Shown in pieces: positions 20,354-23,923 of a DNA stretch of 28,126 bases. The position numbers and the translations under genes were made by a program. The notes under the pieces are model-generated. The model was not told where the DNA came from and did not search any database. It saw only the letters and a list, made by a program, of their open reading frames with translations. Every line of letters starts with the position of its first letter. Position 1 is the stretch's first letter. Where the stretch lies: the NCBI GenBank assembly GCA_043806295.1, contig JAZDHA010000024.1, positions 1 through 28,126 of the forward strand, written 5' to 3'. Source of the DNA: a bacterium (lineage in GTDB: Bacteria > Patescibacteriota > Minisyncoccia > Phycocordibacterales > Phycocordibacteraceae).

Positions 20354-20420
20354 GTTTTCCACAGACCAATTCTCGACCTACTGAATGCAGGTTGTATACT
20401 TGGTATATAAAGGTTCACTT

Positions 20421-21113
20421 ATGGCACTTCGCAAAAAGAAAGCAGAAGCAATCAGAATGCGCAAGGATGGCGCGAGCTATAGCCAGATAAAAGCAAAGAT
20501 TAAAGTGAGCAAAAGTTCGTTAAGCTTGTGGTTGCATGATAGGCCACTTTCTGAAAAGCGATTGCGCGAACTCCGTGATTGGAATGCTGTTCGTATCGAG
20601 CGATTCCAAAATACTATGCGTCATAAGCGTGAGGACAGATGGTCAGAAGTTCGGAAACGCGCGGGAAAAGATATTGGAAAATTAAACAAAAGAGAACTTC
20701 TTATTGCAGGACTCTTTCTCTATTGGGGCGAAGGGGGAAAGACAATGCTTACTTCTGTCTCAGTTTCAAATACTGATCCAGCAATGCTCCGTTTCTTCAT
20801 TTACTGGTTGCAAGCGCTTGGTGTTTCGAAAAGTCGTCTTCGTGTCCACGTGCATTTATATGCTGACATGAATATCAAAACGGAATTACATTATTGGTCA
20901 AAAGTTCTTGATTTACCCCTGACTTCATTTACGAAACCTTATATAAAAAGTTCCAATCGAATCGGGCTTTCTTACAAACAGAAATTTACGCACGGCACCT
21001 GTAATGTGCTCTATCACAACCGCGATATATCAGAGTACGTTCTTATGGCACTTGACTGCATTCGTGATGAATTTGCTCCAAGGGACAAGAAAGGTATAGT
21101 ATTAGACGAGTAA
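20421..21113 (+). CDS. Hypothetical protein: N-terminal HTH plus a LAGLIDADG-like domain; ORF open from 20385
   Basis: AIRMRKDGASYSQIKAKIKVSKSSLSLWL is HTH-like. LIAGLFLYWGEGGK followed by VSVSNTDPAMLRFF resembles the LAGLIDADG helix and strand pattern. Confidence 0.65.
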   Translation: MALRKKKAEAIRMRKDGASYSQIKAKIKVSKSSLSLWLHDRPLSEKRLRELRDWNAVRIERFQNTMRHKREDRWSEVRKRAGKDIGKLNKRELLIAGLFLYWGEGGKTMLTSVSVSNTDPAMLRFFIYWLQALGVSKSRLRVHVHLYADMNIKTELHYWSKVLDLPLTSFTKPYIKSSNRIGLSYKQKFTHGTCNVLYHNRDISEYVLMALDCIRDEFAPRDKKGIVLDE

Positions 21114-21114
21114 T

Positions 21115-21186
21115 ACGCCCATAGCTCAATGGTAGAGCAAACGACTTATACTCGTTACGTTGGGGGTTCGAGTCCCTCTGGGCGTA
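21115..21186 (+). tRNA. tRNA-Ile (UAU)
   Basis: Full cloverleaf; anticodon loop CT-TAT-AC (TAT at 21147-21149); Ile identity features A73, C4:G69, U12:A23 and C29:G41. Confidence 0.93.
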
Positions 21187-21210
21187 CAAATCTCTTATTC
21201 CAAATGTCGT

Positions 21211-21243
21211 AAAATAAAAAACCACCCAGATGAAACTGGGTGG
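21211..21243 (-). terminator. Intrinsic terminator of the CitX-like gene
   Basis: CCACCCAG-N6-CTGGGTGG 8-bp stem followed by a T-rich run on the minus strand, just past the stop codon. Confidence 0.8.
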
Positions 21244-21247
21244 CGAA

Positions 21248-21658
21248 TTAGAAGAACAACTCTTCAAAAAATATGTGTCTGCTCACCTTATACAACTGCT
21301 TCTCTCTCCGATAAAAAACATGAACGTCAATGTCCGCCACGCGTTCTCCCCGGCTGTTTAATTCCAATGCCATGCAAATCCGCTTAAGATCTAGGGGGCG
21401 CATGAGAGTCATTGTCAACTCAAATCCGGGCATTTCCCGCACAATTTTGCCGCGCTTCCATTCGTCATTTCTAAATTGTTTCAACGAATAAAGTTGGACA
21501 TGAGGGAACAAACTTTTTATCCGATGATATGTTCGGACCATTAGAGGAACTAGTGTCCAGGTACTGTGTTGGGTTGTTAAGAAAGTAAGACAAATAACCT
21601 CATTAATAGCGGTCCTAAGTTGCTTCTTGTTTTCCCAAAGAACAATTTCTCCTTTCAT
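21248..21658 (-). CDS. CitX-like (phosphoribosyl-dephospho-CoA transferase core) protein
   Basis: G.E..DLK..LE..R..DIDV..SR pattern, as I recall it from CitX; SD AAGGAGGTG at 21665-21673; extended -10 TGgTATATT at 21704-21712. Confidence 0.62.
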   Translation of the reverse strand: MKGEIVLWENKKQLRTAINEVICLTFLTTQHSTWTLVPLMVRTYHRIKSLFPHVQLYSLKQFRNDEWKRGKIVREMPGFELTMTLMRPLDLKRICMALELNSRGERVADIDVHVFYRREKQLYKVSRHIFFEELFF

Positions 21659-21715
21659 CTTTCACACCTCCTTTTTGTTCGGTGAACTCGCAATACCGCG
21701 GTTAATATACCACAT

Positions 21716-23923
21716 TTATTCCAGATGCATTTCTTTGTCGGCAGTATGGGCGCGAAGGGAGAGGGCGGGGTAGTTTTTTAATTCGGGGTCGGCGGCAACT
21801 AAAGCCGCCGCTTCAGTGCGGGCGGCTTCTACCAATTTAATGTTCTTCAATGCTTCCATAGCGATGTCAGAAACACCCCACTGTTTGCCGCCAGCGAGTT
21901 CGCCCGCGCCGCGGAGCGCGAGATCATATTCAGCGAGTTCAAAGCCGTTCTTCGCATTTAAGAATGCCTTCATGCGATCTCGCGTTGTTTCGCCAGACGA
22001 TTCGGGAAGTGCAAAGCAATATGACTGATGCGTAGAACGAATTACGCGCCCGCGAAGCTGATGAAGTTGTGCGAGTCCAAATCGTTCTGCTCCTTCAATA
22101 AGAATTACTGTTGCATTCGGTACATTCACACCTACTTCAACAACAGAAGTCGCTACGAGGATATTTATCTCACCACTCTCATATTTTTTCATTGTTTTTT
22201 CTTTTTCTGCAGGAGTCATTTTGCTGTGCAATATGCCTATCTCTGCTTCAAGAAAAACATCTTTTTTCAGTCGAGCGGCTTCTGTTTTAACTGATTTTGC
22301 TATTAGAGCGAGTTCTTTTGCCGGATCCGGCTCGTCTATTCTTGGGCAAATAACATACGCTTGATGCCCGAGCGAGAGTTCGGCACGAACGCGCTCATAC
22401 GCGCGTTCGCGTTCTTTTTTGCCGAGTACCTCGGTAATTACTTTTTTGCGGCCGGCCGGCATTTCATCAAGCAACGAAAGATCCAAGTCGCCATAAAGCG
22501 TGAGCGCGAGCGTGCGCGGGATAGGCGTTGCGGTCATCGACAATAGGTGGGGAGCGACCGCATCTTTCGTCACGATTTTCTGCCGGTGCATTGTGCCGAA
22601 ACGGTGTTGTTCATCGATAATAGCGTACGCGAGATATTTAAATGAAAGTGATTTTTCAATGAGTGCATGAGTACCGATGACAATCGGAATCTCTCCATTT
22701 GCTATCATCTTTTTGAATGCCGCTTTGGAAAGTTTCGCGGAGTCCTCATAGCGAACGCGAGAAGGGAACTTTCTACATTCGCTGCCAGTGATAAGACCGA
22801 TGGGAATCGGATGGTCCTTAAAATAAGAAACAAATGTAGAAAAATGTTGTTTCGCGAGTACCTCGGTCGGGCAGAGATAAGCGACTTGGAGTGTTCCGGC
22901 AATTCTTCCCGACGGGAGCGAAGTAGCGACAAGATACGCAGTTGCGGCGGCGACCGCGGTCTTTCCGCTCCCGACATCGCCTTCAAGAAGGCGCATCATT
23001 GGATGCGGTTTCTTGAAGTCAGAGACAATAGTGTCGATTGCTTGTGTCTGTGCGGTAGTTGGAGGGAAGGGGAATGATGCAATAAAATCGGCAAGTTTTT
23101 GATGATCGACTGAGACAGACAATGCCTTTTCAGCGCGAAGCGCGCGACGGCGTTGTTGCATCACAATCTGAAGTGCGAAAATTTCTTCAAAGGAAAATCT
23201 CTTGCGTGCTGCAGTTGCATCAGAAAGTTTTTGTGGCGCATGAATGAAAATGAGTGCAGAAGAAAGCGAAGGCAGATTGTATCGTGCTAGAATCTCTGAC
23301 GGAATAGGGTCTTCTATATTTTCATGCACTCCTGTCTCGAACGCTCTTTTCAGAGCGTGCAAGAACCAGAGTGACGAAATACCCTGACTCTCGGGATACA
23401 CTGGAAACAACTCGGTGTCGAACTTGGACATCCGATGTCCAAGTTTCTGAACTTGGACATCCGATGTCCTAACTTCGGGATTGAATAACGATTTAACTAC
23501 GGAGTCAGGAGCAATGGGTGACTTATCAATCGCTGGATTTGCCAAGTATATTTTCGTTCCTGCTCCCGCCACCTTTCCGCTTACTTTAACCACCATTCCG
23601 TCGTGCAATGTCTTCGCGATGTATGGCTGGCTGAACCACATCATTTTTATTTTCCCCGATGCGTCTTCAAGCCACGCTTCTGCAATCGGTCTACGGCTTT
23701 TCCATGTCTTCCTTATGTCTGGCTTGCGCACGGTGCCATAGAGCGTTACCTCGGCTCCGGCCGAAATTCCAGCAATAGTTCCAGCTGCACCAGCTTGTTC
23801 ATATCGAGCTGGAAAATGATAGAGCAAATCGCGAATTGTTCGTATTCCTAACTTATGCAACGCCCGCTTCTGCTCGGGCTTCAATCGCGTGAAGTGCTTT
23901 TCAATCAGATCATTAGGATTCAT
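21716..23923 (-). CDS. recG: ATP-dependent DNA helicase RecG
   Basis: TIRDLLYHFPARY, wedge/OB domain, LLEGDVGSGKT, IIDEQHRFG, MTATPIPRTL, QLHQLRGRV, DL.LRG.GE. Confidence 0.98.
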   Translation of the reverse strand: MNPNDLIEKHFTRLKPEQKRALHKLGIRTIRDLLYHFPARYEQAGAAGTIAGISAGAEVTLYGTVRKPDIRKTWKSRRPIAEAWLEDASGKIKMMWFSQPYIAKTLHDGMVVKVSGKVAGAGTKIYLANPAIDKSPIAPDSVVKSLFNPEVRTSDVQVQKLGHRMSKFDTELFPVYPESQGISSLWFLHALKRAFETGVHENIEDPIPSEILARYNLPSLSSALIFIHAPQKLSDATAARKRFSFEEIFALQIVMQQRRRALRAEKALSVSVDHQKLADFIASFPFPPTTAQTQAIDTIVSDFKKPHPMMRLLEGDVGSGKTAVAAATAYLVATSLPSGRIAGTLQVAYLCPTEVLAKQHFSTFVSYFKDHPIPIGLITGSECRKFPSRVRYEDSAKLSKAAFKKMIANGEIPIVIGTHALIEKSLSFKYLAYAIIDEQHRFGTMHRQKIVTKDAVAPHLLSMTATPIPRTLALTLYGDLDLSLLDEMPAGRKKVITEVLGKKERERAYERVRAELSLGHQAYVICPRIDEPDPAKELALIAKSVKTEAARLKKDVFLEAEIGILHSKMTPAEKEKTMKKYESGEINILVATSVVEVGVNVPNATVILIEGAERFGLAQLHQLRGRVIRSTHQSYCFALPESSGETTRDRMKAFLNAKNGFELAEYDLALRGAGELAGGKQWGVSDIAMEALKNIKLVEAARTEAAALVAADPELKNYPALSLRAHTADKEMHLE
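23420..23475. repeat. Two tandem in-frame palindromic elements, family A, in recG
   Basis: GAACTTGGACATCCGATGTCC at 23420-23440 and 23449-23469 (29-nt period); 23421-23445 is a 12-bp-arm palindrome; encodes EVRTSDVQVQKLGHRMSKF. Confidence 0.92.

Follow-up and report, generated by a model that had tools for sequence, protein, structure and literature searches.

A single open reading frame lies on the minus strand within positions 21211 to 21712 of the window, the window being the whole 28,126 nucleotide stretch of DNA that was analysed. According to the open reading frame list and its translation, this frame runs from 21248 to 21658 and encodes a protein of 136 amino acids (P0001), referred to here as mini-CitX. 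The features at the locus are as follows.

21115 to 21187, plus strand: tRNA-Ile(UAU), convergent with the cassette and the anchor of the hotspot (ARAGORN, Rfam)
21195 to 21206, no strand assigned: remnant copy of the recG 3' terminus (12 nt, 11/12 identical), 7 nt from the tRNA and marking the edge of the insert on the tRNA side (direct repeat D1)
21221 to 21244, minus strand: intrinsic terminator, a T-run after a 9-bp stem with 6 GC pairs (terminator scan)
21248 to 21658, minus strand: mini-CitX coding sequence, P0001 (open reading frame and translation, family alignments A1 and A2, dN/dS, CitX matches)
21323 to 21334, minus strand: codons for D109-I110-D111-V112, the DxD metal motif (alignment to CitX and HPPK)
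21667 to 21673, minus strand: Shine-Dalgarno sequence AAGGAGG, with the ATG 8 nt further on (read from the sequence)
21704 to 21712, minus strand: TGnTATATT, an extended -10-like motif just past the recG stop (motif seen by eye only)
21716 to 21727, no strand assigned: functional recG terminus, the last codons and stop, the second repeat copy (direct repeat comparison)
21716 to 23923, minus strand: recG, upstream on the same strand, a conserved core gene at the edge of the hotspot (Pfam RecG_wedge, DEAD, Helicase_C and RecG_dom3_C)

The initial annotation had described a self-contained CitX-like gene between recG and a tRNA, and both the position and the monocistronic organisation are borne out. 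The peptide quoted there corresponds to residues 77 to 127 of P0001, and the codons of D109-I-D-V112 fall exactly where its DxD motif had been placed. A strong ribosome binding site and a terminator of the gene's own had also been proposed; the former is present, and for the latter the terminator scan match is joined by a fold of the region 21200 to 21300 with z=-3.57, none of 200 shuffled sequences being equally stable. The claim of an extended -10 of its own stands in part: the motif is visible just past the recG stop codon (21716-21718), but a promoter scan requiring both hexamers found no site upstream of the mini-CitX gene. An HTH/LAGLIDADG-like open reading frame is also found within the window.

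Relatives of mini-CitX are few. A search of 5.8 billion proteins identified 10, which are 52 to 77% identical and all unnamed or described as hypothetical. An exhaustive phmmer search of 1.84 billion cluster representatives gave 12 matches at E 1e-3 or better, and a profile search added three further relatives. The family totals approximately 25 sequences of 112 to 151 amino acids, all on CPR-like contigs. Residues K92, E99, R106, D109, I110 and D111 are invariant in all 21 aligned members, down to 23-30% identity, and G78, E80, S126 and R127 are conserved in most of the 21. Pairwise dN/dS is 0.09 to 0.3 for pairs in which dS is not saturated. The open reading frame is a real gene under purifying selection, and the family to which it belongs is real, selected, unannotated and tiny.

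Up to E 10, Pfam matches P0001 to CitX alone (PF03802, E=8.8e-4); the match spans residues 41 to 113 of the protein and positions 39 to 114 of the profile, with a score of 19.5 bits against a cut-off of 25. Two CitX models in NCBIfam also match, with E=1e-3 and 6e-3; the scores are 16.6 bits against a cut-off of 105.25 for TIGR03124 and 18.7 against 158 for NF002383. P0001 is therefore below the curated threshold of each of the three CitX models. When 21 family members were scanned individually, 18 matched CitX, the best with E=7e-7, and no other family recurred. Comparison of the mini-CitX family with a CitX profile (A3) by hhalign gave E=6e-4, with a sensitivity limited by the composition of A3, which consists of the 14 sequences found with E. 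coli CitX and is enterobacterial only. Against PDB sequences, phmmer with P0001 reached nothing better than designed repeat proteins (E 0.1 or higher), and the family profile had no match. A sub-threshold TerD match (score 0.81) in a protein-language-model atlas search was disregarded.

A model of P0001 built with AF2 on the family alignment (pLDDT 88, pTM 0.80) has the predicted element order strand, helix, strand, helix, strand, strand, helix, strand, strand, helix. When the model was compared exhaustively to 48,161 PDB representatives, E. coli CitX (7DCN_A; Z 8.4, rmsd 3.6, 105 aligned residues, 15% identity) ranked first, model residues 5 to 134 aligning to CitX residues -2 to 142. A Foldseek-seeded pass gave Z 8.5 for 7DCM. 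In the ESM-Atlas, a CitX cluster comes first by shape (TM 0.55), and a cluster of CitG-CitX fusions is also listed (TM 0.56), although mini-CitX has no CitG domain. Swiss-Prot models of CitX match with TM 0.49 to 0.53. ACT domains, ribosomal protein S6 and designed proteins are within one Z unit of CitX (Z 7.9-8.3), the ferredoxin-like fold being a common one, and because such domains score so closely the structure by itself would not decide homology. Sequence and structure together, however, provide good support for mini-CitX as a remote homologue of CitX. By profile cut-offs, flanking motifs and partner genes it does not belong to CitX proper, and we would class it as a compact variant in the CitX/HPPK superfamily.

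The protein had been called a nucleotidyltransferase core. The part of this description that stands is the retention of a CitX-like core with its DxD motif, on which the profile matches, the relatives, hhalign and the top PDB chain agree. The strong fold matches, on the other hand, are all ferredoxin-like. Matches to poly(A) polymerase (1Q78, 2O1P) cover residues of approximately 352 to 519, which are outside the catalytic domain. Judged by the strong fold matches listed (CitX, HPPK, ACT and S6), the predicted fold is probably the ferredoxin-like beta-alpha-beta-beta-alpha-beta of CitX and HPPK rather than that of a Pol-beta-type nucleotidyltransferase.

CitX is apo-citrate lyase phosphoribosyl-dephospho-CoA transferase (EC 2.7.7.61, PF03802; E. 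coli structures 7DCM and 7DCN), for which CitG is the donor synthase and CitD the acceptor ACP. In the C-terminal core of CitX, residues G90/E92, K105, E112, R119, D122/D124 and S134/R135 are the polar residues invariant in A3, and by hhalign each of them has a conserved counterpart in the family, namely G78/E80, K92, E99, R106, D109/D111 and S126/R127, respectively. The motifs come in the same order in both: a G-x-E strand, an L-K helix, a helix-end E, a G/x-R-x-x-D-I-D-V strand and S-R. What surrounds this core differs, mini-CitX having 136 amino acids and CitX 183. The initial annotation had noted the loss of motifs at both ends, and this is supported by extended hhalign alignments. The N-terminal helix of CitX (R-D-x-R-Q-x-R-Q, in which R22-D-x-R25-x-x-x-Q29 is invariant in A3) has no counterpart. 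The strand preceding the P-G-P-x-K-D loop does align, and the loop itself (P48-G49-x-x-K52-D53) is absent, its position being taken by T-T-Q-H-S. Also absent is the C-terminal tail R-x-C-L-x-C...C-x-R...H, with its CxxC..C..H arrangement; P0001 has no Cys or His cluster there and ends 9 residues beyond the S-R motif. The profile comparison and structure model proposed as checks on the initial annotation both select CitX, although the sequence scores are below curated thresholds.

The retained core is also recognisable in HPPK. D109-I-D111-V aligns both to D122-I-D124-V of CitX and to D95-L-D97-I of HPPK, and the G-E-R-V-A-D-I-D-V of the family aligns with G-P-R-T-L-D-L-D-I of E. coli FolK. In HPPK, the DxD aspartates hold two Mg2+ on the ATP triphosphate, and ATP is further contacted by the Arg before them and by the Glu at the helix end. 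From these alignments, the retained core is predicted to be the metal/triphosphate site that CitX and HPPK share. Mini-CitX could in principle be a highly divergent, truncated HPPK (FolK, PF01288) that produces pterin pyrophosphate, since the two have in common the ferredoxin-like beta-alpha-beta-beta-alpha-beta core, the helix-end glutamate, the loop Arg and the G-x-R-x-x-D-[LI]-D-[IV] strand, and HPPK structures are among the fold matches with TM of about 0.4 to 0.5. Yet HPPK is not listed among the Pfam matches of P0001 at E up to 10, the hhalign match of the family to E. coli FolK covers only 17 columns with E=0.055, and there is no profile match beyond this motif. P0001 ends approximately 20 residues past the DxD strand, and so would be without the C-terminal half, which in HPPK binds adenine and pterin. 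No folate-pathway gene was found in any neighbourhood, and no HPPK was recognised in the host genome, the search giving only a weak match, on another contig. A pterin pyrophosphokinase is highly improbable on this evidence.

The loss of the PGPxK loop, which in CitX is likely to contact the substrate phosphates, means that the activity of mini-CitX could be lost or different. A derivative without catalysis, in which the CitX/ACT-like ferredoxin fold serves regulation by binding a small molecule or nucleotide, or has a structural part, would fit the loss of this loop together with the Cys-rich tail and the helix at the N terminus. It would also fit how nearly the scores of ACT and other ligand-binding ferredoxin-like domains equal that of CitX. 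Against it are the invariant residues K92, E99, R106, D109 and D111, all of which align with CitX invariants, the last four also aligning with metal/triphosphate residues of HPPK. A binding scaffold is not expected to keep all of these acidic and basic residues invariant at such low levels of identity, and we consider this alternative doubtful.

Since CitX is the sole family matched by sequence and also the top structural match, it could be argued that mini-CitX is a genuine compact holo-ACP synthase with the function of CitX or MdcG, serving a citrate lyase or malonate decarboxylase whose genes lie in a stretch of the genome missing from the assembly, or which a host supplies. MdcG, the malonate decarboxylase holo-ACP synthase, has the same chemistry as CitX. 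However, mini-CitX has no Pfam match to MdcG listed at E up to 10, its 16.6 bits are far under the equivalog cut-off of 105, and the N- and C-terminal modules specific to CitX are missing. The host genome (G000; CPR/Patescibacteria-like, 567 kb in 78 contigs, 93.6% complete) has no match to CitG, CitD, CitF or CitE/HpcH (PF01874, PF06857, PF04223, PF03328), in searches that detected these families in the reference genomes used as controls. A search of the same genome for CoaE gave only a sub-threshold P-loop match. Nor was CitG or CitD found in a second host genome, that of a member of the Moraniibacteriota (G459), and there is no cit or mdc gene in approximately 13 mini-CitX neighbourhoods. 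The lack of citrate lyase, citG and ACP genes that had been noted nearby therefore extends to the window, the neighbourhoods of the homologues and the genome. The classical role of CitX is effectively excluded for mini-CitX, and a compact enzyme of this kind is the least probable of the readings considered, with next to no weight in our assessment. With a CitX-like core, missing modules, no partner genes and a monocistronic unit, a repurposed enzyme, as had been proposed, is the natural reading.

The family is sporadic in its occurrence. It was found in none of 60 related genomes, including 36 of the same genus, and in none of 400 other sampled genomes of the phylum. A pattern scan with alignment A1 matched a sole GTDB species representative, a Candidatus Moraniibacteriota MAG with one locus, and within the order of this genome 3 of 301 genomes have mini-CitX, counting the query genome G459 itself. 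A pattern scan of JGI metagenomes gave no confirmed relative, and there are none in the phage, plasmid and IMG/VR collections.

The site of the window copy was compared within the genus. recG was located in 30 to 31 same-genus genomes, which is all of those examined, and seven downstream regions were compared. In six of the seven, tRNA-Ile(UAU) is beside recG within the stretch fetched. What lies between the two varies, as follows.

G005, G006 and G029: nothing, the recG stop being 2 to 25 nt from the tRNA
G022: AT-rich filler of about 500 bp
G016: 1.7 kb with two unknown open reading frames
G030: 1.3 kb with another unknown open reading frame
G004: past recG, a larger element that includes a large serine recombinase, and no tRNA in the 4.4 kb fetched
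G000 (the window): 528 bp with mini-CitX

The recG terminus next to tRNA-Ile(UAU) is a variable insertion hotspot in this genus. In the window, the insert lies between the copies of a direct repeat, TTATTCCA[A/G]ATG, which agree at 11/12 positions and are spaced 521 nt apart. The working recG terminus forms one copy, and the other is at the position that the recG terminus occupies in relatives free of the insert. The repeat is not statistically significant on its own. In G016, an exact 15-nt copy of the recG terminus and a 14-nt internal recG fragment are present at the same spot. Because of the position of the remnant and this parallel case, the best reading of the locus is a probable site-specific insertion adjoining the recG terminus. 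A 16-nt imperfect inverted repeat (21212-21227 and 21768-21783) was rejected as a pair of TIRs, its right arm being inside recG coding sequence that is conserved in relatives without the insert.

The layout of the cassette is the same in all homologues examined, with AAAGGAGG before the start, then the open reading frame, and then a stem-loop and T-run. At most mini-CitX loci the genes on either side have the opposite orientation. A sequence after the stop codon, GGTCCTAAGCATGAC, is conserved in four homologous loci and folds no better than shuffled sequence.

No partner protein is shared between loci, as judged by all-against-all BLAST of the open reading frames within 3 kb of the gene at nine loci. 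The cross-locus matches were to an rRNA/intron region (L003 and L007) and to local synteny (L009 and L012). Genes for nucleotide hydrolases and DNA repair, and genes of mobile elements, do recur in the neighbourhoods.

L004 and the P0004 contig: NUDIX, convergent, downstream of mini-CitX
L037 to L040: NUDIX flanking on both sides, with Ham1 and UDG
L036: Ham1, divergent, upstream of mini-CitX
L002: MazG and HIT near mini-CitX
G583: YfbR-like HD 5'-deoxynucleotidase, and a Y1 transposase beside mini-CitX
G494: UvrA-like ABC protein, and a serine recombinase directly upstream of mini-CitX
L034: GIY-YIG near mini-CitX
L003: reverse-transcriptase open reading frame (RVT_1) and LAGLIDADG
L007: group II intron RNA match
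The window: recG, a DNA repair gene, and the HTH/LAGLIDADG-like open reading frame, of the mobile type

A nucleotide hydrolase is within two genes of mini-CitX in 6 of 13 contexts (P=2e-5 to 9e-4). This is a binomial estimate that assumes a base rate of 5 to 10%, and overall P ranges from 2e-5 to 5e-2 according to how independence is counted. If the cases that are possibly syntenic are collapsed, 3 of 9 contexts have a hydrolase (P=0.008-0.05). SecA is near mini-CitX in three contexts (L002, L037-L040 and G583), and the association may in part be inherited synteny. The NUDIX proteins adjoining mini-CitX are not mutually detectable by BLAST, so a single inherited gene does not account for these neighbours. 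In the host genome there are four NUDIX genes and no match to Ham1 or MazG, which argues that the base rate of nucleotide hydrolases is low. In the window, no nucleotide hydrolase is adjacent to mini-CitX. The link between mini-CitX and the nucleotide hydrolases is suggestive.

Such surroundings raise the alternative that mini-CitX is the cargo of a conflict system, a selfish or defence gene (for a toxin, or an anti-phage or anti-defence effector) whose product, with an NTP as donor, would attach a nucleotidyl or pyrophosphoryl group to a target in the host or a phage, with the NUDIX-type hydrolases as detoxifying partners. Its patchy distribution and monocistronic layout are consistent with this, as are the large serine recombinase element at the hotspot in G004, the recombinase and transposase that adjoin it in G494 and G583, the GIY-YIG, LAGLIDADG-like and group II intron genes close by, and the NUDIX genes on both sides in L037-L040. 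Against it, P0001 and three divergent relatives match no family of defence proteins in PADLOC-DB at E up to 1, the PHROG matches are weak (E of at least 0.01) with none meaningful, the phage, plasmid and IMG/VR collections hold no relatives, and no antitoxin-like neighbour is conserved. In addition, the window copy stands alone, and a toxic enzyme would hardly tolerate the absence of its hydrolase partner. Conflict cargo is, on balance, rather unlikely, if less so than a protein without catalysis.

The explanation that we prefer, and which we place just on the probable side, is that mini-CitX is a minimal Mg-dependent enzyme of the CitX/HPPK type, carried as a mobile single-gene cassette and acting on an NTP-type substrate in the nucleotide pool or on DNA precursors, and that it is not a holo-ACP synthase of citrate lyase. 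E99, R106, D109 and D111 would be the putative ligands of two Mg2+ and a ribose-5'-triphosphate, as in CitX and HPPK, with K92, G78, E80, S126 and R127 of the core, common to CitX, also retained. What appears to have been lost are the portions of CitX devoted to the dephospho-CoA prosthetic-group precursor and to the ACP. An ordinary or non-canonical nucleoside triphosphate could then be bound through the DxD-Mg site and its triphosphate cleaved, the attacking group being a hydroxyl or water. The outcome might be nucleotidyl or phosphoribosyl transfer with release of PPi, in the manner of CitX, transfer of a pyrophosphoryl group, in the manner of HPPK, or hydrolysis where water is the acceptor. 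We infer catalysis, the NTP donor and the tie to nucleotide sanitation from the conserved core and its surroundings; the transfer of a nucleotide or cofactor to a target, suggested in the initial annotation, may be one form that this catalysis takes. A role in the nucleotide pool or with DNA precursors is suggested by the recurrent neighbours, namely NUDIX, Ham1, MazG/HIT, the HD 5'-nucleotidase, UDG, recG and the UvrA-like protein. The cassette of promoter, Shine-Dalgarno sequence, open reading frame and terminator would move among CPR genomes, and in this genome would have inserted at the junction of recG and tRNA-Ile.

A broader proposal, which is speculative and which we think improbable as it stands, is that mini-CitX belongs to an undescribed class of mobile single-domain CPR enzymes that would synthesise or break down a nucleotide of a non-canonical or signalling kind together with the neighbouring NUDIX, Ham1, MazG and HD hydrolases. 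If true, this would be a new activity of nucleotide-pool sanitation or nucleotide signalling on the catalytic core of CitX and HPPK.

To our knowledge, CitX has so far been known solely as a dedicated maturation enzyme of citrate lyase, always with CitG and CitD. Mini-CitX is a solitary mobile cassette in CPR bacteria, with none of the CitG, CitD or citrate lyase genes, in ultra-small genomes that are without the whole citrate lyase pathway. A stand-alone, conserved version pared to the metal/triphosphate core suggests that the CitX module has been put to another use. It also brings out a link in sequence and structure between CitX and the folate enzyme HPPK; literature searches on the structure or fold of CitX, on CitX with HPPK and on CitX with MdcG found nothing relevant, and in the library searched found no paper naming both CitX and HPPK. 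CPR bacteria rely on salvage, and hardly any of their accessory genes have been characterised. If active, mini-CitX would be a new small enzyme in the sparse nucleotide metabolism of these organisms.

The tRNA-Ile gene with a UAU anticodon at window positions 21115-21187 adjoins recG, and this adjacency is also found in 6 of the 7 same-genus genomes examined (loci L027 to L033). The junction between the two genes is the variable site into which the cassette carrying mini-CitX, the gene for the 136 aa CitX-like protein, is inserted, and it has other occupants in related genomes. At locus L032 (G004:C31), a multi-kb insert lies directly downstream of recG and includes a recombinase gene:

L032, 3905-5101: large serine recombinase with Resolvase, Recombinase and Zn_ribbon_recom domains

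The tRNA-Ile gene was not found within the 4.4 kb fetched for this locus. The insert appears to be an element that has integrated into the hotspot also occupied by the mini-CitX cassette.

At L031 (G016:C1), the insert is 1.7 kb and contains two ORFs of 394 and 182 aa without assigned identity. Just before the tRNA-Ile gene, at approximately 2390-2430 of this locus, there is an exact 15 nt copy of the recG terminus as well as a 14 nt fragment whose source is approximately 375 nt upstream in recG. Together these pieces have the appearance of a decayed and displaced recG 3' end flanking the insert. In the closest relative (L027, G022:C3), recG and tRNA-Ile are separated by approximately 500 bp of ORF-free sequence of 33% GC instead of the cassette; this filler may be an earlier insert that has decayed.

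Elsewhere, two related loci with mini-CitX homologues have a 16S rRNA gene 2.5 to 4 kb from the mini-CitX gene (L003, 2896-6692; L007, 8533-9824). Beside it lie a group II intron RNA match in L007 and, in L003, a reverse transcriptase (RVT_1) ORF and a LAGLIDADG ORF. Immediately past the stop codon, GGTCCTAAGCATGAC is conserved as a motif in four of the homologues, with AAACTGCTTTTTT coming after it; the motif folds no better than shuffled sequence:

L003, 1497-1530: motif
L004, 3217-3250: motif
L007, 6399-6430: motif
L008, 677-715: motif

Eight separate stretches of the 1752 aa metagenomic protein P0018 match residues 33-67 of the mini-CitX query (E=2e-5), a resemblance that is probably due to repeats or composition. 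Among nucleotide hydrolases, the host genome, which is 93.6% complete, has four NUDIX genes and no Pfam match to Ham1 (ITPase) or MazG.

The other side of the tRNA-Ile gene is abutted by a further ORF, with counterparts at L028 and L033:

window 20385-21113, + strand: ORF of 242 aa, HTH_23 and LAGLIDADG-like

This ORF is variable too: in G006 and G030, tblastn detects it at 74-77% identity, lying between ftsH and the tRNA, and it gave no match in the stretches fetched from G005, G029, G016 and G022. tRNA-Ile(UAU) is therefore variable on both flanks.
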